DNA from: Candidatus Saccharibacteria bacterium UBA6824
GTDB taxonomy: Bacteria > Patescibacteriota > Saccharimonadia > Saccharimonadales > UBA10212
NCBI GenBank assembly: GCA_002452155.1
Contig: DKEK01000006.1
Coordinates: 22,532-86,531 of the forward strand
Direction: 5' to 3'
DNA: 64,000 nucleotides
In this document: positions 1,375 through 43,802 of the stretch, in pieces
How positions within the stretch are numbered: the first letter of the stretch is position 1
How the letters are laid out: each line of letters begins with the position of its first letter
The notes under the pieces: generated by a model
What the model saw: the letters and a program-made list of their open reading frames with translations, nothing else
Told to the model about the DNA's origin: nothing
Database searches by the model: none
Position numbers and translations under genes: made by a program

Positions 1375-4014
1375 CTATTTCCGTTTTTTCTTTTTAGCGA
1401 CCGTTTTTTTCTTGCGTTGGCGTTCGGCTTTGCGGGATTTCTTGCGCTGGTTATGCAGGCGGGCCTGGTCCGTCGCGGCGGATTCGTCTTTGCCGGTTTT
1501 AAAGTCGGCTTCGTCGTAGTGTTCGGTCTGCACAATCTGCCTGGCGTTGTCGACCGAACTGCGGGCCGCCCGGGTCAGGTCAGTTTCAACTACTTCTTGC
1601 AGTTGGGACTCTAGCGGCTGGGCGTGCATGATTGCCCGGATGATTTCATGACGCAGTGTCAGCTGCATCTCATCAAAGATCCGCTGGCTTTGGCGGCGGT
1701 ATTCCACCAGCGGGTCGCGTTGGCCAACGCTTATCCAGTGGATGCCTTCGCGCAGATGGTCCATGTTTTCCAGGTGCTGCATCCATAAATTATCCAGTAC
1801 TTGCAAATAAACGTCGCGCTCGACTTTGCGCATAATGTCGGCGCCAAAGACTTTTTCCTGGTTACGATAGAGCTTTTGGGCGGCGGCGGCCAGTGTAGCC
1901 TCAAACTGGCTGGCTTCAGCGTCAAAAAGTGTGTCCAGAGTTTTATCATCCAGCGGGAAAGTCTCATTCAGTATGGCCTCAAAGTTTTGGCTCAAGCTAT
2001 CCGGGTGGCCAGCCAAAAACTCGGCTTCCTCGTCAATAAATTTTTTGATTCGGGGGCTGATGTCCTCGGCCCGCAAGACCTCGCGCCGGACGGCGTAAAT
2101 GGCCCGACGGTGACGGTTCATAACATCGTCGTACTGAACAACGTTTTTACGCTGGTCAAAATTAAAACCTTCAACTTTCTTTTGGGCGCCCTCTAAACTC
2201 TTGCTTATCATACGGCTTTCGATTGGCGTATCGTCGTCGACCTTTAGGCGGTCCATGACGGCCGCGATCCGCTCACCGCCGTAAATCCGCATTAGATCGT
2301 CTTGGCAGGAGACATAAAATTGGGTCATGCCGGGGTCGCCCTGGCGGCCGCTACGGCCGCGCAGCTGGTTATCGATGCGGCGTGATTCGTGGCGCTCACT
2401 GCCCAGTACAAACAGCCCGCCCAGGTTGGTCACGCCTTTGCCCAGTACAATGTCGGTACCGCGGCCGGCTATGTTGGTGGCCAGCGTCACGGCGCCCCGC
2501 TCACCCGCTTTGGCGACAATCGCCGCTTCGCGTTCGTTATTCTTAGCGTTCAAAACCTCATGTTTGATGCCGGCTTTTTTGAGCAAGCCGCTTAGCAACT
2601 CGTTTTTTTCGACGCTGACTGTGCCGATCAAAACCGGCTGGCCCCTTTTTTGGAGATCGGCAAGCTCGCGGACAATAGCCTGCATTTTGCCGGCCTCGGT
2701 TTTATAAATCCTATCAGATAGGTCGTTACGGACGAGCGGCCGGTTAGCCGGTATTTCGACCACGTTGAGTTTATAAATTTGGTGAAATTCTTCGCTTTCG
2801 GTCATGGCCGTCCCGGTCATACCGGCCAGTTTTTTATAAAGACGGAAATAATTTTGGAAAGAAATGGTGGCCAGCGTCATGGACTCTTCCTGAACTTCCA
2901 CGCCTTCTTTGGCTTCAATCGCCTGGTGCAGGCCTTCGTTATAGCGGCGGCCTTTTAGCAGGCGGCCGGTGAAATCGTCGACAATTATAATCTCGCCGTC
3001 GTTGCTGACGACGTAGTGCTTGTCGCGCTGGAACAGGGCGTGGGCTTTGAGAGCTTGTTCGAGGTGGTAAATTGTCCGCAAGTTTTCGGTCGAGTAAAGG
3101 CTCTCTATGCCCAGAATCTTCTGGATAAACTCAATGCCGGCGTCGGTCAGGATGACGCTACGGCGTTTTTCATCCTTTTCGAAGTGTTCGGTTTCTTTGA
3201 GTTGGAGTACCACCCGGGCAAATTGATCGTAGGCCGTGGCACTAGCTGCCGCCGAGGCGCTAATAATCAATGGCGTGCGGGCCTCGTCGATTAAGATCGA
3301 GTCGACTTCGTCAACGATAGCGTAGTGCAGGTCGCGCTGGCGCAACTGGTCGGTTTCGCGGACCATGTTGTCACGCAGGTAGTCAAACCCGAATTCGTTG
3401 TTGGTGCCATAAGTAACGTCAGCTTGGTAGGCCTCTTGGCGGGTGGCCGGCCGCAGGTGTTGCATGCGCGGATCATAATGCTCTTTATTTTCATAGCTTG
3501 GATCATATACATAAGACTCGTCGGGAATAATAACGCCCACGCTCAAGCCCAAGAAATGATAGATCTGGCCCATCCAGCCAGCGTCGCGCTGGGCTAGATA
3601 ATCGTTAACGGTTACAACGTGCACGCCCTTGCCCTCCAGGGCGTTGAGGTAAACCGACAGCGTCGCCACCAGGGTTTTACCCTCGCCGGTTTTCATTTCT
3701 GATACGCCGCCCTCGTGCAGTACCATACCGCCAATTAGCTGGACGTCAAAGTGACGCTGTTTTAGGGTGCGGGTGGCGGCTTCGCGGACAGCCGCAAATG
3801 CTTCCGGCAAAAGCTGGTCCAGGCTGGTGCCTTTTTCCAGGCGTTTTTTGAATTCGGCTGTCTGTTGTTTGATTTGGGCGTCAGTCATTTTTTGATACTT
3901 CGGCGCCAGGGCATTAACTTGCACGACGCGTTTTTTCAGGCGTTTAATAGTTGCTGCCTGGGGATCGCCCAAGACACGTTTTAGCGGCTTTGTACTAAAT
4001 TTTAATTTCAACAA
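1375..4014 (-). CDS. secA: preprotein translocase ATPase SecA
   Basis: 879-aa ORF with SecA DEAD-like motor motifs (MKTGEGKTL, DEVDSILIDEARTPLII, TNMAGRGTDI-like TNIAGRGTDI) and a Lys/Arg-rich C-terminal tail. Confidence 0.95.
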   Translation of the reverse strand: MLKLKFSTKPLKRVLGDPQAATIKRLKKRVVQVNALAPKYQKMTDAQIKQQTAEFKKRLEKGTSLDQLLPEAFAAVREAATRTLKQRHFDVQLIGGMVLHEGGVSEMKTGEGKTLVATLSVYLNALEGKGVHVVTVNDYLAQRDAGWMGQIYHFLGLSVGVIIPDESYVYDPSYENKEHYDPRMQHLRPATRQEAYQADVTYGTNNEFGFDYLRDNMVRETDQLRQRDLHYAIVDEVDSILIDEARTPLIISASAAASATAYDQFARVVLQLKETEHFEKDEKRRSVILTDAGIEFIQKILGIESLYSTENLRTIYHLEQALKAHALFQRDKHYVVSNDGEIIIVDDFTGRLLKGRRYNEGLHQAIEAKEGVEVQEESMTLATISFQNYFRLYKKLAGMTGTAMTESEEFHQIYKLNVVEIPANRPLVRNDLSDRIYKTEAGKMQAIVRELADLQKRGQPVLIGTVSVEKNELLSGLLKKAGIKHEVLNAKNNEREAAIVAKAGERGAVTLATNIAGRGTDIVLGKGVTNLGGLFVLGSERHESRRIDNQLRGRSGRQGDPGMTQFYVSCQDDLMRIYGGERIAAVMDRLKVDDDTPIESRMISKSLEGAQKKVEGFNFDQRKNVVQYDDVMNRHRRAIYAVRREVLRAEDISPRIKKFIDEEAEFLAGHPDSLSQNFEAILNETFPLDDKTLDTLFDAEASQFEATLAAAAQKLYRNQEKVFGADIMRKVERDVYLQVLDNLWMQHLENMDHLREGIHWISVGQRDPLVEYRRQSQRIFDEMQLTLRHEIIRAIMHAQPLESQLQEVVETDLTRAARSSVDNARQIVQTEHYDEADFKTGKDESAATDQARLHNQRKKSRKAERQRKKKTVAKKKKRK

Positions 4015-8672: not shown

Positions 8673-10196
8673 TCAGGCTTTAAGGTTGAGGCGTTTTATT
8701 AACCAGTCGCGCGGCAAGACCTGCAGGAACCAGCCGGCGCGCGGGCCGCTTTTTTCACCAATCAGAGCGCTGTAGAGCGTCTCGAACATAGCTTTTGGCT
8801 CCATACCGACTTCATCTTTTAGATCATAAAGGGTTTTATGGAACCACTCGCCGCCTGCATCCTTTGGCGCCCCTGCGATTTTTTCGGCTAATTTGGCTAG
8901 AAAACTCTTCTCTTGGTCCGAAAATTCGGACTGACTTATTCCCTTGCGTAGCTCGAATTTGACTTCGTCAGGCGCCCACTTGGCCAGCCATTGGTCGATG
9001 AAGATCAGCTCTTTTTTTATAATTGGTCGCTGTTTTTGCACCACTTGGCCGTGCTCGGTACGTTTAATAATCTCCAGAGTTTTATCGGGGTCTTTCAGGG
9101 AGGCTTGGTAGCTAGCCATCAAGTGGGAAAACGGTATGTTGCTGATGACCGAATCTAAGCCGCCAGTCGAGAGTTCCATCAGCTGGGCTTCGGCCTCGGT
9201 CTTATTTTGCTTGGACTGCAACTGGGCAAACTCGTCGATAAGCTGGGAGATGTGCATCGGATCGAAATAAAGTCGTTTTTGCGGTGCGTAACGCAACATG
9301 AAAAAGCGGATGATCTCCGGCGGCAGAATCCGCATGACTTCGGCGGCGGTTATGCCCGTGCCGGCACTAGCGCTCATCTTTTTGGTATCGCCGGTCCGGT
9401 TGACGAAATCATAAGCCACGGCTATTGGCGGCTTGGCCTTAAAGACCTGGTGCATTATAGCTTCGCCGGTATCAATGGAGCTGCCTTTCGTTGAATGGTC
9501 CCTACCCGAAGGCTCGAGACCAACCTTAAGCAGCCACCATCGGGCCGGCCAGTCGATCCGCCAATCAAGCTTTACCTGCCCTTGGTCGTAGCGTATGGAC
9601 TGTTCTAGGCCAGCTTTATCTTCGTAGTGCAGCGTCTGGGCGGTTTTGTCTAACTTTAAAAAATGACGCTTTTTCAAGTATTCATCTTCCATTATCTGAA
9701 TTGGCGACCAGGTGTCTTCAAGCTGTCGACCCGAAACTTCTTCCAAAATTTTACGCAAGTCGTCTGCCTGCTCCAGAGCCTTTTCTATGGCAGCCACAAA
9801 AAAACCTTCCCGGTATTTTTGGCGGCCACTCAGAAACTCCATTTTAATACCCAGGGCTTTGGCGCTGTCGCGAAGGTCTTTTAAGAAAAAATCGCCATAA
9901 CTGCCGCTGCCTTTGGGGGCTGGGATATCGGCCAGCGGCTGACCAAGGTATTTTTCGTACTGAGACGGTATGTTTTTAGGGATTTTTCTAAGCGCGTCAA
10001 AATCATCGACTACATGGACGTGACGCCCCTGCCGACCACGGCGCTCTACTTCCCTTAAAACCGCGTCAGCCGTGATAATCTCACGCAAGTGACCAACGTG
10101 GTAAGGCCCCGATGGCGCCGAACCGGACTCGATTATGACCTCACCTTCAGGCTGGCGGTTTATAAGTTGATCGACAACGTCATTAAGCCACTGCAT
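8673..10196 (-). CDS. lysK: class I lysyl-tRNA synthetase
   Basis: 507 aa with a HIGH-type motif (HVGHLRE) and a KMSKS-type motif (KMSAS). TATAAT lies 6 nt upstream of the ATG. Confidence 0.9.
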   Translation of the reverse strand: MQWLNDVVDQLINRQPEGEVIIESGSAPSGPYHVGHLREIITADAVLREVERRGRQGRHVHVVDDFDALRKIPKNIPSQYEKYLGQPLADIPAPKGSGSYGDFFLKDLRDSAKALGIKMEFLSGRQKYREGFFVAAIEKALEQADDLRKILEEVSGRQLEDTWSPIQIMEDEYLKKRHFLKLDKTAQTLHYEDKAGLEQSIRYDQGQVKLDWRIDWPARWWLLKVGLEPSGRDHSTKGSSIDTGEAIMHQVFKAKPPIAVAYDFVNRTGDTKKMSASAGTGITAAEVMRILPPEIIRFFMLRYAPQKRLYFDPMHISQLIDEFAQLQSKQNKTEAEAQLMELSTGGLDSVISNIPFSHLMASYQASLKDPDKTLEIIKRTEHGQVVQKQRPIIKKELIFIDQWLAKWAPDEVKFELRKGISQSEFSDQEKSFLAKLAEKIAGAPKDAGGEWFHKTLYDLKDEVGMEPKAMFETLYSALIGEKSGPRAGWFLQVLPRDWLIKRLNLKA

Positions 10197-14169: not shown

Positions 14170-16590
14170 CTAAAGATCGGTGTCCACACGCCCCGTCTCG
14201 ATCCAGTTGGAGCCGTTATAGCGGAAGCTAATGGTACGGCTCTTGGTGTCGGCGATGGTGGCGCCGAAGGCACCGTTTTTCAAGAAGGCGGCGTTGAAAG
14301 TGATCGGTCCGGTGAAAACAGTGCCACCGCCGATGCCGTTTTTGAAGATAAAGTCGAGCCTTCCGCCAACTGTCGTTCCGAGTGAGACGGGAGCGTTGAC
14401 CGTACGGGCTGCATTGACTGCGAAGGTCCAGGTGTGCAGGTAGGCTTTGGTCGGATCCGGGCTGCCCGATCCGGCATCCGTGACTGCGAACGTGCCCCTA
14501 CCCTGAATGAAGCCCGTCGCAGAGGCGTTGACGATCATGAATTGCCCTGCCGGAAAACCGAGGAGTCGGTTGTTATCGATGAACACATTGGTGGCAGCTG
14601 CATTAACCCAGATTCCGACAGTTTGTGTAGCGCCGCCGGTGTCGTAGATACGATTGTTGATAACGTGAATCTGGTCACAGGCGGCGTTGATGTATACTCC
14701 ATTGTTCTGAATATTCCGCCAGCCGTTGTCGAAAATACGATTCCCATCGATTGTCACTTCGGCAGGTTGGCCGCCGTTGCCGGCGCTCAGCGTAATTCCG
14801 CTTAAGCCAAAATAAGAAATTGAATTACCGCGGATTTCCAGATCCCTAAGCCGCGAAGTTAGGTCAATTCCACTGGCCGAGGATGAAGCCGAACGGGCGG
14901 GAGGGGCTGCGCCAAGCGACCCATCGGGGGTAGTAATTACGGCCGTGGTGGTCGTATTGTCGTTTATTGTGGTGACAAGTCCAAGTGTTCCCGCACCGCC
15001 ACCAGCTGTAGTCATATAGAGTTTTCGCTGGGTCACACCGTAAGGGCCGATGGGGATATTGTTGGCATTAATCTTGGTGTGAGAGGCATCGGCAGTAACT
15101 GGGGCACTTAATGGACTAGCACTAGTTTCTCCTGAGGCGGTAACAAATGTCACAGCTAAGCTATGGGCTCCGGCTGTAACCTGCCCAGGAGTTGAGTCGG
15201 AAACCAGAGCCGGTGCCGGCTGCTTGGGGGCGGTTTCTCCTAACAATATATTGTTAGCAACTATTATCCGCTTTGAAAATTGAACACCAGAGGCCACATT
15301 CTTACCAAGCTGTATACCACCACCGGTAGCACCAGGCTTCAAAGCGACTAGATTAGATGAAATAACAAAATCGGTTTCAGAGAAGTCATAGTTAAGGCCC
15401 AAGGTAATGCCGGCATTGCAATCAGTTACAACATTACCCGTAACTGTTGCCAATTTATCCTCTACATTAATTCCATAACCACAGTTCCTAACCACATTGC
15501 CAGTAATAGCGACTCTGGATCCCCAAGGAATTGGTAGGCCCTTGGTATTAACTAGTCCAATGCCGTAGGTCGCACAGCCTTCGACAACATTGCCCGAAAT
15601 TGTAATATCAGATGAAGAAGGCGGGCCGGTTTCATACACGATTCCATTAGATCCTGCACCACTCGTCCCCCGAACTACGCAATTCGTAACGCTCATACGG
15701 CCGCTATTTGAACCGGCGCAATAAATCGCAAAAGTGGGTACTCCGGTCACATGTACACCACTAATCTCGTGATCCCCCCAAAGACTGTCATTAGTTGAGT
15801 TTTGAGACGAACGAACGTTGATGCCGTTTCCGATACCGGCTCCAATCCGCATTGTGTCAACGACAGTACGTCCACCAATCCAGGTCTTAGTGCACATAGA
15901 CAGATCTATCGATGTATCGAGCGTGTTATAAATGTATACGTTAGAGATTCGGACTCCGTCGACGGTATACACGGCGAGGGCGGCAAAGTCAGTTCCTGGG
16001 CCGTTAACAGTCGCGTTCGTCATATCAATATAAAGATCAGCAATCTCGAAATTGGACAGACGATTATTGGCGCCGCTATTATCGTTACTGGTGTTAACGC
16101 GTAAAAAGCAGTTAGTACCAGTGCCCGTCTTAAACTTCATAATGGTTCCCATTCCAGTGCCAGTCAGCCGAACATTCGACGTATTGAGTGTTAGTTTACC
16201 GACAAGATATGTTCCTGCTGGAAAAAGAATTGTTCCGCCAGTTGAGGGAAGCGCGTTGATCGTGGCCTGAATCGCCGTTGTGTCGTCTGCTACTCCATTA
16301 CCTATAGCCCCATAATCCTTAACATTAAGAAAGAAGTCCCCCTTAGCAACGGCACTAATGTCAGAAGGGGTTAGGGCATCGGTCCCTCCTGTGGCGTGGG
16401 TAGCCTTATGGCTGGTCGAGGCGGCAGCTAGGTTGGCTCGCGCGGTGGTGGCATCAGTGGCACCAGTACCTCCCTTGGTTAGGGGGAGAGTCTTTTGGGT
16501 GCCGTCTGGGTTATGTTCTTGGTTTAGGAAGTCATTTAGAACATCGCCCCATTTACCGTCGTCTCCGCCAGGAGTAGGAAGACGGCTCAT
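14170..16590 (-). CDS. right-handed parallel beta-helix (pectate-lyase-3/tailspike-like) protein, family copy 1
   Basis: 806 aa with the conserved N-terminus MSRLPTPGGDDGKWGDVLNDFLNQEHNPDG. It has the pectate_lyase_3-type entry motif (NVKDYGAIGNGVADDTTAIQ) and many N/G/T-rich beta-helix coils. No signal peptide. Confidence 0.9.
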   Translation of the reverse strand: MSRLPTPGGDDGKWGDVLNDFLNQEHNPDGTQKTLPLTKGGTGATDATTARANLAAASTSHKATHATGGTDALTPSDISAVAKGDFFLNVKDYGAIGNGVADDTTAIQATINALPSTGGTILFPAGTYLVGKLTLNTSNVRLTGTGMGTIMKFKTGTGTNCFLRVNTSNDNSGANNRLSNFEIADLYIDMTNATVNGPGTDFAALAVYTVDGVRISNVYIYNTLDTSIDLSMCTKTWIGGRTVVDTMRIGAGIGNGINVRSSQNSTNDSLWGDHEISGVHVTGVPTFAIYCAGSNSGRMSVTNCVVRGTSGAGSNGIVYETGPPSSSDITISGNVVEGCATYGIGLVNTKGLPIPWGSRVAITGNVVRNCGYGINVEDKLATVTGNVVTDCNAGITLGLNYDFSETDFVISSNLVALKPGATGGGIQLGKNVASGVQFSKRIIVANNILLGETAPKQPAPALVSDSTPGQVTAGAHSLAVTFVTASGETSASPLSAPVTADASHTKINANNIPIGPYGVTQRKLYMTTAGGGAGTLGLVTTINDNTTTTAVITTPDGSLGAAPPARSASSSASGIDLTSRLRDLEIRGNSISYFGLSGITLSAGNGGQPAEVTIDGNRIFDNGWRNIQNNGVYINAACDQIHVINNRIYDTGGATQTVGIWVNAAATNVFIDNNRLLGFPAGQFMIVNASATGFIQGRGTFAVTDAGSGSPDPTKAYLHTWTFAVNAARTVNAPVSLGTTVGGRLDFIFKNGIGGGTVFTGPITFNAAFLKNGAFGATIADTKSRTISFRYNGSNWIETGRVDTDL

Positions 16591-16704
16591 AGTATATGAG
16601 CCTCATTAGAACTATTTAAGCTCTCTCTTTTTTCCTCTCTCTGAAGGTTTTTGGGTTTCACCTATTTATCCCTTATGGTTATTGGCTATAGGAAGATTAT
16701 AGCA
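16591..16704 (-). promoter_or_regulatory. promoter (TGCTATAAT, 16696-16704) and ~100-nt GA-rich leader of beta-helix copy 1
   Basis: Extended -10 sits 106 nt upstream of the ATG. Purine-rich tract at 16621-16643. The block AAAAACCTTCAGAG is shared with copy 3. Confidence 0.6.
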
Positions 16705-23875: not shown

Positions 23876-26311
23876 CTAAGGTATACCAACGACGGTCGGG
23901 GTCCGGGCACTGGTGCCGGAGTTCATTGCGGGAGTGGTCGGCGGCACGGGAGAAGCGGTGTCTTGGAAGCCAGAGAAGCCAGCCGCCGGCAAGCCATTGC
24001 TTGGGGTCGTCCCCTGGATCTGGGTGGTGTTTGAGGCGACACCGACCGCGATCCAGTCGCCGGTGTTGATCCGGACCGCGGCGTTGAGCGCGACTTGGTT
24101 GAAGTTGTTAGCGTTGGCTGTGGTCGAGACCGAGACCGCCTTTTGCGTGCCCGGCACAGCACTTCGACCCGAGCCGGTGCCAGAGTAGACGGCCACTGCG
24201 ATCTGGTCGGTAGTGCCGGGAGTGGTGGAATCGATCGTGCCAATGTAGACGCCGATCTTTGAGCAGAGACCGCCCCCGGAGGTGACACGCACGTATAAGA
24301 TCCGGTTAGCGGCCCCGAGACTGCTCATAGCGGTGGTCGTTCGGGGATCGACCGCTATCGGCGCCCCGAGGCCTAGCGGGTCACGGTAATCGAGGCGGTA
24401 GAACTGGGCTCCGTTGGTGCCATCAGAGACCTCGCCGGTCAGATTGCCGGCAAAATCGTCGTTGACCGAGCGCACGCTCGTGGCAGTGGCATCGACCCGC
24501 AGGCCATAAGTCTGGAGTTTGGGGCCGCGGGTGTCGTAGCACTTGTTATGCGCCAGAGCGATGTCATTGCAGCCGGGATCGAGAGCGATACCGACCTGGT
24601 TTTGGATACTCCCACCATTGGCGGTGTTGTTGTCGATGCAGTCGTTACCGCGGATCCGGCCAACCGTCGGGGCTATGCCGCCGCTGGCCTCTAGGTAGAT
24701 CCCCGAGCGACCAAAGCCACGGACGGTGTTGTCGGTGATGTCAAAGTCGATAATCCTTCCGCTCGCCCGGATGCCGTAGGACGAGGTGGTGGTCAGTTGG
24801 CCATCTACTTGGTTGCTGCGAATCTGGAGCCGGCGGAGGTAGTTGGTCCCGACCCCCTTGGGGATATATATACCGCTGCCATTGCCGTCGGCGGCCATCA
24901 CCACAGTATTATCGTTGATGGCAAAATCGGTTTCTTCAACATCGAGATTGTTCCCCGCTTCGATCCCGATCCGGCAGTTGGAGATGACATTGTTGGAGAC
25001 CCGGACCATTTCACCGTGGGCCACTATTCCCCGCAGGCTGCCGGATGATGCGACGCCGAACTCGCTCGTCCCATCCTTGCCCCTAATTATATTGTCGGCC
25101 AACAAATACCGATGCGCGTAAATGACCCCCGACCCCGAGCTGTTCTCTGCGGCCACGCCGTGGTCGGAGAAGTCGGAGACGACATTGTTGGTGATCTGCA
25201 GGTCAAAGGCTCCTGGGGAGCCGACCTCAGCGCTAATCGCGCCGAAACAACCCTGGCTCAAATTATGGGCGGCGATCAACCTGAAGGCGTTAAGGCTGCC
25301 AACATAGATATTTTTGTCGGCCTGAACCGTAAGCGTGCCCCCGGTAGCAGCCGACGGGGTGGAGCCTATAGTAGCGGTGAAAGTCGTCGGAGACGGGACG
25401 GAGGCCACGCTTCGGTACCCGTTATAGGCTGGCACACTCACCCCGGTGACCTTGATCGGTTGTCCCACGCTCATCTTGTGGGCCGTCGATGTTGTGAAGG
25501 TGGCGACCCCGCCGCTCGCCGTCGCGGAGCTGATCGCGACGGTGGTCGTATGCTTGATGAAGCAGTGGTCGAAGATCACATCTTCTGTGTCGAGAGATGC
25601 ACCGGCCTGGGCATTGAGGGGGTTGGAGGCGCCCTGCCAGTAGCAGGTGTCGGCGGTGATGAAGGAGAAGCGAACCATGGTGCAAGAGTGGGTAGCAACA
25701 CAGTAATCGCGGCCATTGATGACGAGCAGGTGGTCGTAGTTAACGCCGTCGGTCGCATAGGACTGGATAGCTCCCGGGATCCCCCCGGCTGCCCAGGTCT
25801 GATCGCCGCCGTTGGCGTTGACGGCCAGGTTTTTGATCGCGAAGTTTTTGCGGCGTGGAGGGGTACTGCTTGAGCTGGAATTGCAGCGGATGACGTTGCG
25901 GACGCCGGTGGCGCCCGGCTTGAGGGTGATGACACTGGCCGGTCCTTCGCCGGCGATGGTAACGTTATCGATATCGATGGTGACGGTGCCCGAGATGAGA
26001 TAGTTACCGCGGGGGAAGTAAAGGGTCGCGCCGCCTGCCGGAATGGCGGCAATAGCGCTATTGATCGACGCAATGTCGTCAGTCACCCCGTCGCCTTTGG
26101 CTCCGTAGTCTTTGACGTTGATGACAAGGTCGCCTCTGCCCACGACATTAAGGTTGGTTCTAGCGGTTGGGGCATCAGTCGCTCCAGTACCGCCCTTACC
26201 TACTGAAAGAGTTTTCTGGCTACCGTCTGGGTTATGTTCTTGGTTTAGGAAGTCATTGAGGATGCCTCCCCAGGTGCCATCGTCTGAGCCGGGGGTTGGT
26301 AGTCTAGACAT
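23876..26311 (-). CDS. right-handed parallel beta-helix (tailspike-like) protein, family copy 2
   Basis: 811 aa with N-terminus MSRLPTPGSDDGTWGGILNDFLNQEHNPDG and the entry motif NVKDYGAKGDGVTDDIASIN. GC-rich, with many shadow ORFs. Convergent with prmC. Confidence 0.9.
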   Translation of the reverse strand: MSRLPTPGSDDGTWGGILNDFLNQEHNPDGSQKTLSVGKGGTGATDAPTARTNLNVVGRGDLVINVKDYGAKGDGVTDDIASINSAIAAIPAGGATLYFPRGNYLISGTVTIDIDNVTIAGEGPASVITLKPGATGVRNVIRCNSSSSSTPPRRKNFAIKNLAVNANGGDQTWAAGGIPGAIQSYATDGVNYDHLLVINGRDYCVATHSCTMVRFSFITADTCYWQGASNPLNAQAGASLDTEDVIFDHCFIKHTTTVAISSATASGGVATFTTSTAHKMSVGQPIKVTGVSVPAYNGYRSVASVPSPTTFTATIGSTPSAATGGTLTVQADKNIYVGSLNAFRLIAAHNLSQGCFGAISAEVGSPGAFDLQITNNVVSDFSDHGVAAENSSGSGVIYAHRYLLADNIIRGKDGTSEFGVASSGSLRGIVAHGEMVRVSNNVISNCRIGIEAGNNLDVEETDFAINDNTVVMAADGNGSGIYIPKGVGTNYLRRLQIRSNQVDGQLTTTSSYGIRASGRIIDFDITDNTVRGFGRSGIYLEASGGIAPTVGRIRGNDCIDNNTANGGSIQNQVGIALDPGCNDIALAHNKCYDTRGPKLQTYGLRVDATATSVRSVNDDFAGNLTGEVSDGTNGAQFYRLDYRDPLGLGAPIAVDPRTTTAMSSLGAANRILYVRVTSGGGLCSKIGVYIGTIDSTTPGTTDQIAVAVYSGTGSGRSAVPGTQKAVSVSTTANANNFNQVALNAAVRINTGDWIAVGVASNTTQIQGTTPSNGLPAAGFSGFQDTASPVPPTTPAMNSGTSARTPTVVGIP

Positions 26312-26426
26312 AGTCTAAGCTCCCACCTGCGGTGCTGGTAAAGTTCTCTCTCTCTCTCTCTCTCTGGATTTTAGACATAGCTGTTGGTTTTTACCTTCCT
26401 CATGGTGCTTGAGGTTATTGTAGCAT
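26312..26426 (-). promoter_or_regulatory. promoter (TGCTACAAT, 26417-26425) and leader of beta-helix copy 2
   Basis: Extended -10 sits 106 nt upstream of the ATG. The 61-nt block 26366-26426 matches 43742-43802 with 2 mismatches. Confidence 0.65.
26345..26365 (-). repeat. (GA)10 dinucleotide repeat in the 5' leader of beta-helix copy 2
   Basis: Perfect TC x10 on the plus strand, 34-54 nt upstream of the ATG at 26311. Confidence 0.95.
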
Positions 26427-32525: not shown

Positions 32526-35500
32526 CTAGTACTTGATTATGTAGTTCAGTGTGAGGTAAGCCCCGCTGTCGAGTGGCGAGCCGGTTGGTCCGATGGTGAC
32601 ATTGCTGTGCGTACCGCTGCCGTCGTTTCTCGCCACGGCGTTGTTCCCATCGCCACAACAGTCCACCGTATCGAGAAGATGATGAGACTTTGGGGTGCGA
32701 TTTGCAAGTGTGGCCCCCTCATTATTAGCAAGAGCATTGACGTCGGTGTTGGAAGAGTTGAGTCCAACCGGCGCTCGACCCCGCAGGTCGGGGAGATTAA
32801 AGGTGGTAGAACCATCACCCACCCCGTAGGTCGTGCCGACGACAGCGAAGAGAGAGGCATAGGTTGTTCGCGAGACGGCCGAACCATCGGCAAGCAGGTA
32901 ACCCGTCGGGGCGCTCGACCCGGCAAAAGGCACAACTGTTCCGGCCGGATTAATCACGGCGCTGCCGCTGAGATCACTCCAGGTACCGCTGGCACAGCCA
33001 CGGAAGGTACCGGAATTGGAGTTATAGTAGATGGCACCGTCGATACAGGTAGGATCACCAGAGGTGTTTTTATTGCCCAGCACCAGCAAAACCGGCGTCG
33101 AGCCGGCAGCACCCAGCGTAATCTTGGAATTGGTGGTGTCGACGCTAAACAAGCTGGCAGTCGAGGTGTTCTGAATCTGGAAAACAGCAGTATTATCAGT
33201 ACCCGGTTTGACAATTACGCCGCCCGTAGCACCCGCCGGGCTAAGGTTAATGTTGCCGGTGCCGGACTGAAGAAGAAGTGAACTGGCAGCTACGGTGGAG
33301 CCAATGGTGATGACGTTTTTGCCAGTGGAAGTAGCTGTAGCACCGATGTTAATGGTGTTGGTGTTGCCTGAAGCGACATTGCCGTTACCAATGTTTATGG
33401 TTTCGCCGGCGGTGGATCGGCCAAAAATTAGGCTGCCAGTGTTAGCCGTAGAGCCCACTGTTACAGTATTGACGTTGGTAGTGCCAATGGAGATAGTGCC
33501 CGAGGTGCCAGCACTCAGGCCAATCGCACTAGCACCAGTACCACCTTGAATGGTCGTGGCCGAAGTGCCGAGTAAATTGCCGATAGTTACATTGGTAGTT
33601 GAGGAAGCAGTGGCGTTGTTGCCAACGTTGACGGTTTGGGCAACAGCTCCGGTAGTAGTTCCAATCTGTACTGTGCCAGCTATGCCGCCGTTGCCTAGCT
33701 CAACTGAGGCGCCGGAGGTATTGACCAGCAGATAGTTGTTGCCGGCCAAGTTTTGAATCCGAAAAGCAGTAGTGGAATCGGCCGCATTTTGGGCCAAAAA
33801 TGTGCCACTGAATTTGTTATTACCGGTGAAGGTCTGCGGGCCGGTGCCGTTTAGCAGAGCGACATTACCAGAGAGTCTAGCATCAGCTACCGTACCAGAG
33901 CTTATGTTCGAGCCGTTGAGACTGGTTAGCGAAGCACCAGAGCCGGAGAAAGTGCCGGCAATGGCCGTGCCGGAGATGTTGAGGTTGCCGGTTTGAGCAG
34001 AACCTGGGGTAGAACCTTGTAATTGAACATAGCCACTACCGCCAATTGATGGAGCATAGCCAGAACAGACAGAGCCAGTCGTACAAATGATGCCGGTTTC
34101 GGCCGGCAGGGTGAGACTGAAGGTGCCCGCCCCAGGATTGGCAGCTTGGAGGGAAATATTACCAGAACCACCGGAGTTATAGAGGGTTAAGTTACCGGTA
34201 AGGGTTGAGGCTTTACCTAAAACTACCCTGGAGCCAGAGGTGTCCACCAGCAGCAGTTCATTGCCGGCCAGGTTTTGAATCCTAAAGGCAGTGGTGGAGT
34301 CGGCCGCGTTTTGGGCCAAAAATGTGCCACTGAATTTGTTATTACCGGTAAAGGTTTGCGGGCCGGTGCCGTTTAGCAGAGCGACATTACCAGATAGACG
34401 GGCGTCAGCTACCGTACCAGAGCTTATGTTGGAGCCGTTGAGACTGGTTAAGTTAACTCCGGAAACAGCTGGCAATTGGGTCGAGCCATTTAACTGAACA
34501 AGTTGCGAGGCCCCGTTAAAGCTGTTGCCCTGCAGTGTGACATTAGAGCTCAGGCGAATATCAGCCACTGTCCCCGAGCTTAGGTTGGAACCGTTTAAAT
34601 TAGTTAGGCTGGCGCCGTTGCCAGAGAATGTACCAGCGATAATAGTGCCCGAAACATTGATATTGCCAGTTTCCTGAGTTCCCGGCGTGCTAGCTTGCAA
34701 GCTGACGCAGTTGCCGAAGGCACAGCTGCCGGTACCGGGTGGACCGGCTGGACCGGTTGGACCGGTGGCGCCATTAGTACCATTTGTGCCAGCGGTACCC
34801 GTGGCGCCGGCTGGACCGGTGGCACCAGGGACACCGGTGGCGCCGGTTGCACCCTGAAGACCTCCCGCGCCAGTGGGACCGCTGCCGGTACAGCCGGTGG
34901 CTGTACAGACCAATACTTTATTAATAGTAAGGCCGGAGTTATTGAGGGAGCTGGTACCGCCGGAGGCAGCCAGACTGCCGCTGGCGGTGAAGCCGCCACT
35001 CAGTTGTAATACACCAGTGGTTGGTTCTGCGACCAGTTGGCCGAGTGTCAGGTTTTTGCCCTTGGCCAGGACGGTGTCGAGGTTTAGGGTCAGCTGGCCG
35101 CCTTTGGTGCTCAGGAGGGCGGAGTCGCTGGCTTGGGAACTTAGGTCGGTGGCCGGCGGTTTATTTTGGCGTAGCAGGCCGGAAAGGGCGAAGGCACCAG
35201 AGACTAAAGCTATGAGTGCCACAAAAGCCAGGCCTACAAAGATTGGCCGGTGGAAAAAAAGACCTGTTCGTCGGGGACCACTGCCCGAATCTTCGATGCC
35301 GCTGTTTACAGGGGCCGACGTAGCTTCCCCCAGCTCAGGAACGGCGGCTAGAGGCACCGAAGTTAATTGATTAATTAAGGAGGGGTGAAGCGGCGGTGTA
35401 CCTATAACCGTTGGCGGGCTAGCCGGCGGCTGCCAGGAGTTTTCCAGCTGCCGCCAGTCAGTGGGGCTGGGGTGGTTGTTGGCAAGGGGTGGTGCGGGAA

Positions 35501-35951
35501 ATGGCGTAGTCTCGAGTGATTTAATTTCTGAGGTTGTGGATGGCGCCCAAGACGGCGCTGCTGCCGGTTGAGCCGGGGGCGCCTCAGACAGAGGTTGGAC
35601 TGGAGATGACGGTGGTGCCTGAGGGGTGGTAAGGGTTGAGGGTGAGGTAATTGCTTGGGAGTTCTCAAAACCGGCCCACCCGGGTAAATCGTCTTCAGCC
35701 ACCCCAGTGCTACTATCGTAATTATCTATGGGCGCTTCCGCTATGGCCGGCGCCAAGGCCCGTAGGCCTAGTGAGCCTTTTAGCTCATCCTCTAATTGCG
35801 CTCCCAGCCGGGCCAGCTTATCGGGCGCAAGCTTGATCGCCTGGCTGGCTCTAAAGACGCGTTTTCGGCAACGCGCCGAACAGACCTTGGCATTGGGCCG
35901 GCCTTCAAACTGCTCATTGCAACCTGGACATAGCTTAGTTTTGGGAGCCAT
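32526..35951 (-). CDS. 1141-aa membrane-anchored fibre protein: N-terminal zinc ribbon, Pro-rich linker, TM helix, collagen-like Gly-X-Y tract, repeated fibre modules, phage tail-collar domain
   Basis: CPGC...CSARC near the N-terminus and the TM segment IFVGLAFVALIALVSGAFAL. GXY repeats are encoded at ~34731-34885. The tail-collar-type motif PFAGSSAPTGYLLADGS...TTFNLPDLRGRAPVG is encoded at 32763-32948. Confidence 0.85.
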   Translation of the reverse strand: MAPKTKLCPGCNEQFEGRPNAKVCSARCRKRVFRASQAIKLAPDKLARLGAQLEDELKGSLGLRALAPAIAEAPIDNYDSSTGVAEDDLPGWAGFENSQAITSPSTLTTPQAPPSSPVQPLSEAPPAQPAAAPSWAPSTTSEIKSLETTPFPAPPLANNHPSPTDWRQLENSWQPPASPPTVIGTPPLHPSLINQLTSVPLAAVPELGEATSAPVNSGIEDSGSGPRRTGLFFHRPIFVGLAFVALIALVSGAFALSGLLRQNKPPATDLSSQASDSALLSTKGGQLTLNLDTVLAKGKNLTLGQLVAEPTTGVLQLSGGFTASGSLAASGGTSSLNNSGLTINKVLVCTATGCTGSGPTGAGGLQGATGATGVPGATGPAGATGTAGTNGTNGATGPTGPAGPPGTGSCAFGNCVSLQASTPGTQETGNINVSGTIIAGTFSGNGASLTNLNGSNLSSGTVADIRLSSNVTLQGNSFNGASQLVQLNGSTQLPAVSGVNLTSLNGSNISSGTVADARLSGNVALLNGTGPQTFTGNNKFSGTFLAQNAADSTTAFRIQNLAGNELLLVDTSGSRVVLGKASTLTGNLTLYNSGGSGNISLQAANPGAGTFSLTLPAETGIICTTGSVCSGYAPSIGGSGYVQLQGSTPGSAQTGNLNISGTAIAGTFSGSGASLTSLNGSNISSGTVADARLSGNVALLNGTGPQTFTGNNKFSGTFLAQNAADSTTAFRIQNLAGNNYLLVNTSGASVELGNGGIAGTVQIGTTTGAVAQTVNVGNNATASSTTNVTIGNLLGTSATTIQGGTGASAIGLSAGTSGTISIGTTNVNTVTVGSTANTGSLIFGRSTAGETINIGNGNVASGNTNTINIGATATSTGKNVITIGSTVAASSLLLQSGTGNINLSPAGATGGVIVKPGTDNTAVFQIQNTSTASLFSVDTTNSKITLGAAGSTPVLLVLGNKNTSGDPTCIDGAIYYNSNSGTFRGCASGTWSDLSGSAVINPAGTVVPFAGSSAPTGYLLADGSAVSRTTYASLFAVVGTTYGVGDGSTTFNLPDLRGRAPVGLNSSNTDVNALANNEGATLANRTPKSHHLLDTVDCCGDGNNAVARNDGSGTHSNVTIGPTGSPLDSGAYLTLNYIIKY
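33741..33928 (-). repeat. internal repeat copy A of the fibre gene
   Basis: ~190 bp nearly identical to 34263-34450 (period 522 bp). Encodes ...NGSNISSGTVADARLSGNVALLNGTGPQTFTGNNKFSGTFLAQNAADSTTAFRIQNLAGN. Confidence 0.9.
34263..34450 (-). repeat. internal repeat copy B of the fibre gene
   Basis: See 33741-33928. Confidence 0.9.
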
Positions 35952-40721: not shown

Positions 40722-41432
40722 AGAGGACGTTCCTCTATAGGTGTTAATCTATGCTAGTTTAATTCAATAATTAGCTAACTGGTATTTAAATTCGCTTAGC
40801 ATGTTTTTTTGCTCTTCGTAATCGGCTACGAATTTTAGGTAATCTGCTCTGGAAGCAAATAGTTTTAAAGCCATCGAGGTATTGAGCCACTGCGGCTCGT
40901 GTCCGGCCAGGTAATAATTGAGGCTTGAGAAGCGATAGTTTCGCCATAGTCTAGGGTTAAGATGTATGTAACGGGTGATGTGTTGCAGGTATGAGTCGTT
41001 GTCGAGCCTGACGGCTTTATAGCGGCTTTCGAACAAAGGCCCGCTGCGCTGGTATTTAAGGTTGAAATAACGGCTGTAGCTGGTCATTAAACTGCGCATT
41101 AGCTTCTCCAGATAAGGCACGTCTTTTTGATAAACCAGCAGGTGCAGATGGTTGGACATAAGACAGTAAGCCAGCAATTGCACCCTGCCCCGATAGTGCG
41201 GGTATGGCTCGCCGGTTTTACTGAGTGCTGATTTGTTAGACAGGTATCTTTCAAACAAAGCCAAAAAGTACTTATAGTCGGCTGCTTCGAGAAATATCTT
41301 TTGTTGGTTAGCTCCCCTAGTGTAAATGTGATAGTACGAGTCGGGAGCTTGTTCTTTATTAACATTGCGCGATGGCATGGAGCAATTATACTGAAACTAG
41401 CACCAAATTACACCTATAGAGGAACGTCCTCT
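40722..41432. mobile_element. RAYT-type unit: Y1 (HUH) transposase gene flanked by perfect 22-bp inverted, hairpin-forming repeats
   Basis: AGAGGACGTTCCTCTATAGGTG (40722-40743) is the exact reverse complement of 41411-41432. Each end contains the hairpin AGAGGA-CGT-TCCTCT. Confidence 0.75.
40764..41378 (-). CDS. REP-associated tyrosine (IS200/IS605-like Y1, HUH) transposase
   Basis: 204 aa with YHIYTRG, the HUH motif in CLMSNHLHLLV, and the catalytic Tyr context RYIHLNP. Confidence 0.85.
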   Translation of the reverse strand: MPSRNVNKEQAPDSYYHIYTRGANQQKIFLEAADYKYFLALFERYLSNKSALSKTGEPYPHYRGRVQLLAYCLMSNHLHLLVYQKDVPYLEKLMRSLMTSYSRYFNLKYQRSGPLFESRYKAVRLDNDSYLQHITRYIHLNPRLWRNYRFSSLNYYLAGHEPQWLNTSMALKLFASRADYLKFVADYEEQKNMLSEFKYQLANY

Positions 41433-41462
41433 AAATTCCTTAAACGTCCTCTAAATTCCTTA
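41423..41462. repeat. 2 x 20-bp tandem repeat AACGTCCTCTAAATTCCTTA overlapping the right inverted repeat
   Basis: Two exact adjacent copies. The first 10 nt of each unit equal the terminal 10 nt of the inverted repeat. Confidence 0.9.
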
Positions 41463-41488
41463 AATTATTTCATCTGTTAGTTCGTTGG

Positions 41489-43660
41489 TCATACGGTTGA
41501 TGAATCCACGATCAGGCCGGTCGCCGCAAGCGCGGTCAGCAGCGACGCCAGGGCTGCGTTCCCTCCGCGCGATCCTGTGACGGTCTGCTGCGTTGCTGTC
41601 GCGTGGTTGTAAAAGCCGAGATTCGCGCCAAGATGCCGAAGGTCGAGGGTAACGTGGAGCGAGTCGTCCGTCTTGAGCACGTCGGCGGCACTGCGGTAGA
41701 GGATCGTGTCGAGGGAACCCGCGCCACTACCCCATCGGATCGCACCGTCAGCGCGAAGCAGCCAGCGGGCGAAGCCGTCGCCAGTAACGAGTCCCTGAAG
41801 CTGTGTGGAGGTTGAGAGAGCGCCAGTGGCCGAGATGAGTGCCCCTGACCCCAAAGAGAAGACACCACTGACCGGATTGAGCGTGAACATACCCACCCCG
41901 GCATTGCGAATCGTAATTATGCCGTCGTGACTAAAATTGACAAGATTGTAAGTTCCAGTGCTCGACTGGAACTGCACTATATCAGAGGTTTGCCCCCCGG
42001 TTTTTTCACGGAATATGACCGGCACCACATCTGCGGTGGGCACGACAATTTGGGGCGTCGAAGGTGACAAGAGCACTGACGACAGCCGGGGATCAGTGGT
42101 TCCCACCGCTGCAACCCATCCGGTCTTGCCCGAACCGGTTTCCTTTACGTAGAGCGATGTCGATGCACCGCCATCGGTGCGACTGTACGCGGAGCCAACG
42201 GGGGCATACAGTACGCCTTCAGGCGAGCCACTACCAATCGCCTCCCGCACAAACCCAGCAGGCGGGGCCATCCCAAGACCGGCGCCACTTTCAACCTCGC
42301 GGTAGTCACGAATTACGCAGTTCAGGAAAACGTCGGGGTCGGCAAACGCGCCTGATCCCACCAGCATCCCCAATGTGACACGGCTATTGTTCGCCTGTTC
42401 GATTACCCCTGAGATCACGCACCCGTCGATTGTGTGACCGCGCGCAACATTGTCAGGGGATCCATCGGCGTTGATTTTTGCGAAAGCGACCCCCTCGGTG
42501 AAAGCCGCACCCGCCGTGCCGATAATATTTTTCAGGTTGACGGTGATCCTGATGTTCCTGTAAACGAGCGCGGTCGTACTGGTGAAAGACACAAGGATGG
42601 GGGCTGCTCCTTGGATACTCCCATCGCTCTCACGGTCATAGTAGTTCAGGGTGATGTTTTCAACCGAGTCGGTGTAACCAACTTTCGAGCTGTTCGACTG
42701 GTTCTTCGCTCTGACAGTAACCTCGTGATTCTTGGCTCCGTACACGAAGTAGGCACGACCTGGGCTGTCGGCATCTACCATCGCCACTAGGTCATCCCCG
42801 GAGTTCTGACAACTCAGCGGATAGAAAGTAAGACTTGTCTTGATGCGCGCATTGATTTGCCGACTCTTATAACTGTCAGGGTCTGAAATGGCCTTTTGGA
42901 ACGCGACGCCAGCACGACCGCCGATTAGTTCCACGTCGAGGTTGATGCCCACACAACCCTGGTAGAACATGAGCAGGTCACGACCCACCTGGCCGTTGCC
43001 GCTGGAGACATCCTGGGACGTGAACTTGAGCCTACCAATGTCGATGTTGTTGCAGGCGCTGAAGCCAAAAAGCACGCCGACCTGTGATCCCGTGAAGGTG
43101 TAGGTGTCGGCAATGCTCGCACCTGACCCCCAGATTTTGATGCCGCGAAGGTTTGTGAAGAGATAGAGAGTAGCGAGACCTGACACCTTGTAAGTGCCTG
43201 CGTCGGGAAAGAACAAGGTGCCACCACCGGAAGCCTGGAGGGCTGCGCACGCCGCAGTTATCGCAGTCGTATCGTCAGCAACGTTATTACCGACCGCACC
43301 GTAAGCTTTGACATTAAAGACTTGGGAGCCTTTGTCTAAGAAAGTGCCGGCATTAAAGGTTTTAGTTCCGGTAATAGTTTCAGTACCAGCCAGGTGAACC
43401 ACAGCCGAATCAGTCGCTTTGGCGGCTAGGTCTGAGGTTAAGTTAGTGATTTTAGATTCAGAGATGACTGAAACATCGGCGTCGGTGATATTAAGAGCAG
43501 CTAGTTTTGACTTAACAATAGCAGCCGTGGACGCTACCTTGGCATTGGTAATAATTCCGTCTTTGAGCGTGCCGTCTGGGTTATGTTCTTGGTTTAGGAA
43601 GTCATTGAGGATGTCTCCCCAGGTGCCATCATCAGAGCCGGACTTTGGTAGTCTAGACAT
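41489..43660 (-). CDS. right-handed parallel beta-helix (tailspike-like) protein, family copy 3
   Basis: 723 aa with N-terminus MSRLPKSGSDDGTWGDILNDFLNQEHNPDG and the entry motif NVKAYGAVGNNVADDTTAIT. The C-terminal motif is LGFYNHATATQQTVTGSRGGNAALASLLTALAATGLIVD. GC-rich. Confidence 0.9.
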   Translation of the reverse strand: MSRLPKSGSDDGTWGDILNDFLNQEHNPDGTLKDGIITNAKVASTAAIVKSKLAALNITDADVSVISESKITNLTSDLAAKATDSAVVHLAGTETITGTKTFNAGTFLDKGSQVFNVKAYGAVGNNVADDTTAITAACAALQASGGGTLFFPDAGTYKVSGLATLYLFTNLRGIKIWGSGASIADTYTFTGSQVGVLFGFSACNNIDIGRLKFTSQDVSSGNGQVGRDLLMFYQGCVGINLDVELIGGRAGVAFQKAISDPDSYKSRQINARIKTSLTFYPLSCQNSGDDLVAMVDADSPGRAYFVYGAKNHEVTVRAKNQSNSSKVGYTDSVENITLNYYDRESDGSIQGAAPILVSFTSTTALVYRNIRITVNLKNIIGTAGAAFTEGVAFAKINADGSPDNVARGHTIDGCVISGVIEQANNSRVTLGMLVGSGAFADPDVFLNCVIRDYREVESGAGLGMAPPAGFVREAIGSGSPEGVLYAPVGSAYSRTDGGASTSLYVKETGSGKTGWVAAVGTTDPRLSSVLLSPSTPQIVVPTADVVPVIFREKTGGQTSDIVQFQSSTGTYNLVNFSHDGIITIRNAGVGMFTLNPVSGVFSLGSGALISATGALSTSTQLQGLVTGDGFARWLLRADGAIRWGSGAGSLDTILYRSAADVLKTDDSLHVTLDLRHLGANLGFYNHATATQQTVTGSRGGNAALASLLTALAATGLIVDSSTV

Positions 43661-43802
43661 AGTCTAGACCTCCAGCTGCAGGGCTGTTTAAGCTCTCCCT
43701 CTGAAGGTTTTTCTGGGTGGGTAAGAGTGTGTGGGTGTGTGGGATTTTAGACATAGCTGTTGGTGTTTACCCTCCTCATGGTGCTTGAGGTTATTGTAGC
43801 AT
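43661..43802 (-). promoter_or_regulatory. promoter (TTGCAG-16-TGCTACAAT, -10 at 43793-43801) and ~125-nt leader of beta-helix copy 3
   Basis: The extended -10 and the 61-nt leader block are shared with copy 2. The AAAAACCTTCAGAG block is shared with copy 1. SD GGAGG lies 10 nt before the ATG. Confidence 0.65.

Follow-up and report, generated by a model that had tools for sequence, protein, structure and literature searches.

A length-variable GA repeat in the leader of a tailspike-like beta-helix gene: a candidate contingency locus in a Saccharibacteria-type bacterium

A beta-helix gene family among housekeeping genes

We analysed a 64 kb stretch of DNA, called here the window, of an uncultured bacterium of the Saccharibacteria type (Patescibacteria). 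Three paralogous genes are found in it, copy 1 (14170..16590), copy 2 (23876..26311) and copy 3 (41489..43660), with an almost invariant N-terminal module, MSRLPxPGxDDGxWGxxLNDFLNQEHNPDG, and a diverging remainder. The module is common in genomes of Saccharibacteria and of other Patescibacteria. The neighbours of the paralogs are housekeeping genes (RRF, RF1, PrmC, ribonucleotide reductase, SecA, FtsZ and tRNA synthetases); copy 2 is a chromosomal gene. Contig DAIRRK010000001.1 of assembly GCA_036804945.1 is identical to the window throughout their overlap. The features considered in this study are as follows.

16621..16643, minus strand: interrupted purine tract of copy 1, CAGAGAGAGGAAAAAAGAGAGAG, aligned gaplessly to the GA tract of copy 2; invariant in the assemblies seen
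23876..26311, minus strand: copy 2, gene of an 811-aa right-handed beta-helix, tailspike-like protein, downstream of the GA tract (Pfam PF12708, PHROG and PDB matches)
26295..26327, minus strand: predicted hairpin in which the Shine-Dalgarno region is paired with codons just 3' of the AUG (fold, -11.3 kcal/mol)
26304..26378, minus strand: upstream reading frame MSKIQRERERENFTSTAGGSLDYV and its stop, with a relic ATG as start, holding the GA tract (from the sequence); its TAG overlaps the main start (ATGTCTAG)
26320..26324, minus strand: Shine-Dalgarno-like GGGAG, 8 nt 5' of the ATG (read from the sequence)
26337..26395, minus strand: predicted helix of GGUAAA (26395..26390) with UUUACC (26342..26337), closing a large loop (fold)
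26345..26365, minus strand: A(GA)10 microsatellite in the 5' leader (sequence and repeat finder), with alleles of 10, 11 and 14 units in public assemblies
26398..26414, minus strand: predicted 5'-terminal leader hairpin CCUCA-N7-UGAGG (fold)
26417..26425, minus strand: predicted extended -10 box TGCTACAAT (read from the sequence), conserved in paralogs and homologues
43727..43743, minus strand: CA-rich imperfect repeat of copy 3, CCCACACACCCACACAC, at the position of the copy 2 GA tract; invariant in the assemblies seen

The product of copy 2 has a pectate-lyase-like beta-helix domain (PF12708) and is matched by several PHROG tail-spike families; its sequence matches in the PDB include a beta-1,3-glucanase, a mannuronan C5-epimerase and a pectin lyase. 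Glycan-recognising proteins of the tail-spike kind are typical targets of phase variation. We assume that the copy 2 protein is exposed at the surface; its N-terminus, as read off the alignment, has no recognisable signal peptide.

Among full-length homologues, the one closest to copy 2 (54% identity; locus L164, Logan SRR30224739) was found in a phage-like array of small overlapping genes. A homologue of the gene at locus L022, discussed below, lies in a similar array (L166, Logan SRR29408807), and a Gp80-family gene is present in one of these two arrays. Given homologues in such surroundings, the chromosomal beta-helix family looks phage-derived. Two scans of viral contigs, one by protein family and one by a leader pattern allowing a gap of variable length, yielded no match; a metagenome scan gave no close relative of copy 2, the best match having 64% identity over 128 residues.

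Several other features of the window are of separate interest. Directly 3' of copy 3 there is an IS200-like Y1 transposase gene (40764..41378), and the gap that separates it from copy 3 contains 2.1 perfect tandem copies of the 20-nt AACGTCCTCTAAATTCCTTA (41423..41464). The gene at 32526..35951 (minus strand), the second of phage-fibre-like type amid housekeeping genes, encodes a 1141-aa protein in which collagen-like repeats are combined with a phage tail-collar domain at the C-terminus; it contains 9-nt tandem repeats at 34734..34853. The lysyl-tRNA synthetase encoded at 8673..10196 (minus strand) belongs to class I (PF01921), a type seldom met in bacteria. There was no mutS or mutL among the ORFs annotated in the window, that is, in 64 kb and not the whole genome.

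The GA tract and its leader

On the plus strand positions 26345..26365 read TCTCTCTCTCTCTCTCTCTCT, i.e. (TC)10.5, and the coding (minus) strand reads A(GA)10. The repeat is perfect, as the first-pass annotation had it: Tandem Repeats Finder gives it a period of 2, a copy number of 10.5 and a match rate of 100%. No other dinucleotide repeat of at least 6 units exists in the window. In 100 dinucleotide-preserving shuffles of the window we found 0 matches to the 21-mer with up to 3 mismatches allowed; since no shuffle reproduced it, the tract cannot be chance and is a product of slippage.

The tract is situated within a gap of 186 nt, bounded on one side by the stop of the gene for an HtrA-like protease (26498) and on the other by the start codon (ATG, 26311) of the ORF 23876..26311 (minus strand). 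Its start is ~52 nt 3' of the predicted extended -10 box and its end 33 nt 5' of the ATG. The box, in the form TGCTA(C/T)AAT, is also present 5' of copy 1, of copy 3 and of close metagenome homologues. From its position we infer a transcription start of copy 2 at about 26410, in which case the tract would fill roughly +46 to +66 of a ~99-nt leader. The order promoter, tract, ribosome-binding site, proposed in the first-pass annotation, thus fits the sequence, with both flanking elements being predictions. We considered a second promoter-like pair further downstream, TTTACC-19-TAGACT, and rejected it because transcription from it would start past the ATG.

By location and composition A(GA)10 belongs to the repeats that define contingency loci, i.e. 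perfect slippable repeats in a promoter, a leader or a 5' coding region. A classical promoter-spacer switch was rejected for this tract, which is ~52 nt 3' of the -10 box; the spacer layout does occur in two homologous loci, L021 and L057, described below.

The predicted fold of the leader has three elements. A 19-mer with the 5'-terminal hairpin, AACCTCAAGCACCATGAGG, is identical in copy 3, and the stem recurs, with differing loops, in three homologous loci (L091, L094 and L099). The loop closed by the predicted GGUAAA/UUUACC helix contains the start of the upstream frame and the GA tract, the latter unpaired; the predicted fold of copy 3 is alike, with GGGUAA/UUACCC around the CA-rich tract. 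A hairpin at the start site is predicted for copy 3 (43646..43674, minus strand; -15.7 kcal/mol, z = -3.1) as well as for copy 1 (16578..16604, minus strand; -11.7 kcal/mol, z = -3.4), in copy 1 with a different sequence. Judging from these folds, the start-site hairpin may restrain translation across the gene family.

It had also been suggested that the repeat acts via RNA structure, and for this we found no support: the tract lies in a predicted loop, between 4 and 16 units the folding energy of the leader changes by under 4 kcal/mol and the pairing scheme stays constant, and the leader has no advantage in folding over shuffled sequence (z = -0.47). A search of the leader against Rfam 15 gave no family; the sole match, to sok, is on the opposite strand, with 13.7 bits for a gathering score of 59 (E = 0.93).

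Leaders of the paralogs and origin of the upstream start

The leaders of the other two copies have no perfect repeat, in agreement with the first-pass annotation. In copy 1 the corresponding position is taken by the interrupted purine tract CAGAGAGAGGAAAAAAGAGAGAG; its gapless alignment to the GA tract indicates that a polypurine element is common to the gene family in this genome, copy 2 carrying the perfect-repeat version of it. In copy 3 there is a CA/CCCA-rich stretch (43743..43727) and then CAGAGGGAGAG.

Copies 2 and 3 are 97% identical over 61 nt of promoter and early leader (26366..26426 versus 43742..43802); their coding regions are far more diverged, which suggests gene conversion or strong constraint on the shared segment. 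Past the 61 nt the two part, with the GA tract in copy 2 and CCCACACACCCACACAC and further sequence in copy 3.

Four homologous loci (L091, L094, L098 and L099) have the same -10 box and a leader, AACCTCAAGCAC, that runs directly into the main start ATGGCTAGACTACC. At the position of this main start, copy 2 has the ATG at 26378 (ATGTCTAAAATCC). As the two positions coincide, the ATG at 26378 is a relic of an ancestral start codon; comparison of the leaders indicates that 66 to 93 nt were inserted between it and its gene, and that the start region is repeated at the end of this insertion. In the leaders of both copy 2 and copy 3 (26376..26378 and 43752..43754, minus strand) the relic start reads ATGTCTAAAATCC, compared with ATGTCTAGACTACC in the relatives. 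At its present start copy 3 has an 11-nt tandem duplication (TCTAGACTATG, 43649..43669).

Recurrence of slippable repeats upstream of homologues

The set of homologues comprised 77 loci from species-representative genomes and 80 metagenome loci, 157 genes and 601 kb altogether, all from other Patescibacteria. These sequences were scanned for G/C homopolymers of at least 8 nt and dinucleotide repeats of at least 6 units. Four such repeats were found in the 601 kb, every one no more than 150 nt 5' of a family gene and all four in the 77-locus set. The 80 metagenome loci had none of the scanned repeat types, so that at most ~3% of the family genes carry such a repeat. With the window included (665 kb) there are five repeats, each just 5' of a family gene, in different species and of different types. 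Under a null model that places repeats in non-coding sequence only, this placement has P ~0.005 without the window and ~0.001 with it.

Two of the repeats, G9 in L021 (279..287) and G10 in L057 (613..622), are each in an 18-nt spacer between TTGAC(C/A) and TA(A/C)ACT, where they occupy the 3' half; both loci are from Patescibacterial genome bins, and their proteins have the N-terminal module alone in common. The other two are dinucleotide tracts. In L022 a (CT)10 tract (2434..2453) is in the leader, 28 nt 3' of a predicted -10 box, and inside a frame beginning ATGAAATTTATC; one other assembly of this locus, from Logan for run SRR8554898, has the same gene spacing. In L076 a (GA)15 tract (2362..2391) is 110 to 139 nt 5' of the ATG, inside a short frame that has a strong Shine-Dalgarno site (AAGGAGaacccccATG) and encodes the peptide MRFT(ER)n; a protein search with the L076 gene returned no near-identical protein, hence there was no allele with which (GA)15 could be compared. 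In both loci, of the three possible exit frames of the tract, one or two stop within a few nucleotides of the main ATG.

As a separate observation, ATAAGC and its complement GCTTAT are enriched in the upstream 100 nt of 154 family loci (L006-L162), in 31 and 17 loci, with ~6 and ~4 given by shuffles. The motif is sometimes a few nucleotides 3' of a -10-like box and may represent a motif conserved at transcript starts in these bacteria.

The scan bears on the most serious alternative to an expression switch: that the purine-rich element shared by the paralogs became a perfect repeat in copy 2 as a neutral by-product, so that the tract slips with no selected effect on expression. In copy 1 the interrupted tract of equal length argues that a polypurine element is conserved regardless of its perfection; the GA tract is predicted to be unpaired in a fold insensitive to unit number, the main gene has its own Shine-Dalgarno site, and the 80 metagenome loci do without such repeats. 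On the other hand, a neutral origin does not lead one to expect that the five long G/C or dinucleotide repeats in 665 kb should all be located just 5' of one gene family, nor that two of the five should be poly-G tracts in promoter spacers, where by established promoter mechanics length matters. We regard the neutral explanation as a real possibility, though one less likely than not.

Length alleles among assemblies

For the proposal of an expression switch the first question is whether the tract varies. Assemblies of the same clone were retrieved by exact-protein look-up with the beta-helix protein, its shorter 755-aa gene call, two versions of HtrA, and PrmC; for HtrA the 406-aa ORF matched nothing, and the shorter-start versions of 398 aa and 385 aa gave matches. 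Eleven distinct assemblies, several of them probably from the same runs and thus not all independent, span the GA tract. Nine have (GA)10: JGI 3300001536, 3300013763, 3300013766 and 3300039109, GCA_036804945.1, GCA_036771655.1, ENA ERZ27248603, Logan SRR1586269 and Logan SRR1586256. One has (GA)11 (L169; ENA ERZ27248658, contig k119_229516), with 100% identity to the window elsewhere in the 3033 nt compared. One has (GA)14 (L184; JGI 3300011992, contig Ga0120146_1003509), with identity elsewhere in the 4326 nt compared except for a scaffold gap of 10 N, which also accounts for an apparently split gene. The GA tract is therefore the sole real difference between these two contigs and the window, and both variants are expansions, by one and by four units. 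An apparent 1-nt indel in another contig (L183) was dismissed as Nextera adapter at the contig end.

In other places 0 to 5 substitutions over 7 to 10 kb separate the assemblies from the window, and the leaders of copies 1 and 3, taken as controls, are identical in all assemblies seen. We conclude that the GA tract slips: its length varies among otherwise identical assemblies, as had been anticipated from the sequence. The first-pass annotation had named uniform length across related strains as the observation that would speak against it; with alleles of 10, 11 and 14 units among same-clone assemblies the length is not uniform. Heterogeneity within a sample is hidden by assembly consensus. In five short-read assemblies (L169, L170, L172, L182 and L183) the contigs break 75 to 150 nt inside the beta-helix gene; these breaks fall in the N-terminal module repeated among the three paralogs and not at the GA tract.

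One may ask if the tract is in fact stable at 10 units, the alleles of 11 and 14 units being PCR stutter or artefacts of de Bruijn-graph assembly. Ten units are indeed found in 9 of the 11 assemblies; the variant contigs are short (about 3.0 to 5.2 kb), which fits low coverage, so that the 11-unit allele could be stutter; and the scaffolded L184 contains a run of N, suggestive of an older short-k assembler in which a k-mer loop was possibly miscounted. Still, the contig with 11 units comes from an assembly with k = 119, and its 23-nt tract must therefore have been spanned by reads. PCR stutter mostly removes one unit, and a gain of four units is atypical of it. Moreover, the variant contigs contain no other error bar the N gap and adapter at contig ends. 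These considerations make an artefact quite improbable.

The GA repeat is thus unstable and, with 10-, 11- and 14-unit alleles accompanied by no other nearby difference, may serve as a switch of expression. Changes in tract length would then act as a contingency switch, generating heritable and reversible differences in the amount of protein; to this reading, which is built on sequence comparison, we give an even chance.

The upstream reading frame and a possible mechanism

The tract is inside the short frame that opens at the relic ATG and, with a unit of 2 nt, each slip shifts this frame. With n = 10, 13 and so on the upstream frame stops on the main AUG (ATGTCTAG); with n = 11, 14 and so on it stops at a TAG 3 nt 5' of the AUG; with n = 9, 12 and so on it extends 67 nt into the gene, out of frame.

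This frame, with its ATG 12 nt 5' of the tract, is what might recommend a frame switch within the true 5' end of the beta-helix gene, in the manner of the Helicobacter pylori CT/GA genes; we rejected such a switch as hardly credible, because a TAG in the main frame (26317..26315) separates the tract from the ATG, so that the two can fuse at no repeat number, and because the conserved N-terminus MSRLP begins at ATG 26311 in all paralogs and homologues.

Returning to a switch that acts from the leader, one can envisage two routes. In route (a) a slip would move the stop of the upstream frame relative to the main AUG, and ribosomes translating the leader would melt the predicted hairpin that hides the Shine-Dalgarno site and the AUG. 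In route (b) repeat number would set a graded yield or stability of the transcript, as in hmw of Haemophilus influenzae; a purine-rich transcript on a pyrimidine-rich template can hinder elongation.

An ATG reading into the tract within 20 nt is present at all three dinucleotide loci (window, L022 and L076); given a base rate of 0.23, this has P ~0.012 in a post hoc test. Similarly, at each of the three loci at least one of the frames leaving the tract stops within a few nucleotides of the main ATG (P = 0.12, 0.08 and 0.18); combined by hand with Fisher's method, these values give ~0.05, in a test devised after the data had been seen. Within the family it is common for an upstream frame to stop close to the main ATG, as happens at 25 of 152 loci. 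At n = 10 the upstream frame of L022 has a TGA stop right after the tract. An argument against route (a) is that the main gene has a good Shine-Dalgarno site of its own and may not need the upstream frame. We tentatively place route (b) slightly ahead of route (a).

A more specific version of route (a), extended to the dinucleotide tracts of the whole family, would be a three-state translational phase switch, in which n modulo 3 sets the stop of the leader frame and hence the opening of the start-site hairpin. The three sites of termination would be directly behind the tract, on the main start codon, and past this codon in the wrong frame. Such a switch, in a symbiont of the candidate phyla radiation, would correspond at the level of translation to the leader-peptide mechanism of pil1. 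We consider it unlikely.

Significance

Saccharibacteria and other Patescibacteria are ultrasmall, and the cultured ones live attached to host bacteria; to our knowledge, little is known of the ways in which they diversify proteins in contact with the host or its phages. We class the leader of copy 2 as a simple-sequence contingency locus, a known class, with a regulatory effect that we infer. Full-text literature searches on phase variation in Saccharibacteria and on simple-sequence repeats in the candidate phyla radiation returned no such locus; the nearest case described is a hypervariable coding repeat in a Gracilibacterium (PMC6851277). If the switch is real, a slippable repeat placed before a tailspike-like protein that binds or cuts glycans would provide reduced genomes with a cheap and reversible way to diversify a population, the same purpose that contingency loci serve in pathogens. 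The poly-G promoter tracts and the other dinucleotide tracts before homologues in other species point likewise. What adds interest is that a Patescibacterial tailspike-like family repeatedly has such tracts, and that these may act through a leader frame.

Comparison with known systems

Switching by homopolymers in promoter spacers is known for porA and opc of Neisseria meningitidis and for the fim genes of Bordetella. This classical layout has its likeness in G9 of L021 and G10 of L057 with their 18-nt spacers; the tract in the window differs in being outside the spacer, ~52 nt past the -10 element. In Helicobacter pylori, oipA and sabA, which are genes of outer-membrane proteins, have CT/GA repeats in the 5' part of the coding sequence. 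The repeat motif is the same, copy numbers are similar, and switching by reading frame, here a proposal, is a further likeness; the tract in the window differs in being outside the main frame, with an in-frame stop between the two. In Moraxella catarrhalis, AGAT repeats in the 5' untranslated region of uspA2 affect the expression level of a surface protein. As in our case (where transcription of the leader is predicted), a simple repeat is within the transcribed leader; the uspA2 repeat differs in being tetranucleotide and is reported to be necessary for wild-type expression, not to be an on/off switch.

In the pil1 locus of Streptococcus gallolyticus, GCAGA repeats are found in a leader-peptide gene, and ribosomes on the leader melt a downstream stem-loop (PMC3894217). 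Both there and here the repeat is in a short upstream frame, its unit is not a multiple of 3 and slippage alters the length of the frame; here each slip shifts the upstream-frame stop with respect to the hairpin predicted over the Shine-Dalgarno site and AUG. The difference is that the stem-loop of pil1 is a transcription terminator, whereas the copy 2 hairpin lacks a U-tract and would affect the initiation of translation.

The adhesin genes hmw1A and hmw2A of Haemophilus influenzae have 7-bp tandem repeats 5' of the gene, in 9-28 copies, and more repeats generally lead, as that paper relates in citing Dawid et al., to stepwise less transcript and protein (PMC2424069). The likeness is as follows: a simple repeat is 5' of the start codon of a gene for a large protein (secreted or at the surface in hmw, and assumed to be so here), downstream of a promoter (here a predicted one) and upstream of the ATG, and the genes are paralogous with independent tracts, repeat number in hmw varying within and between isolates. 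The differences are in the unit (2 nt in 10-14 copies here, 7 nt in 9-28 copies in hmw), in the host, which is an uncultured Patescibacterium, in the perfect tract being present in one of three paralogs, and in the locus being known here from sequence. On this comparison hmw1A/hmw2A and uspA2 appear closest to the copy 2 locus in layout, and pil1 appears closest to route (a).
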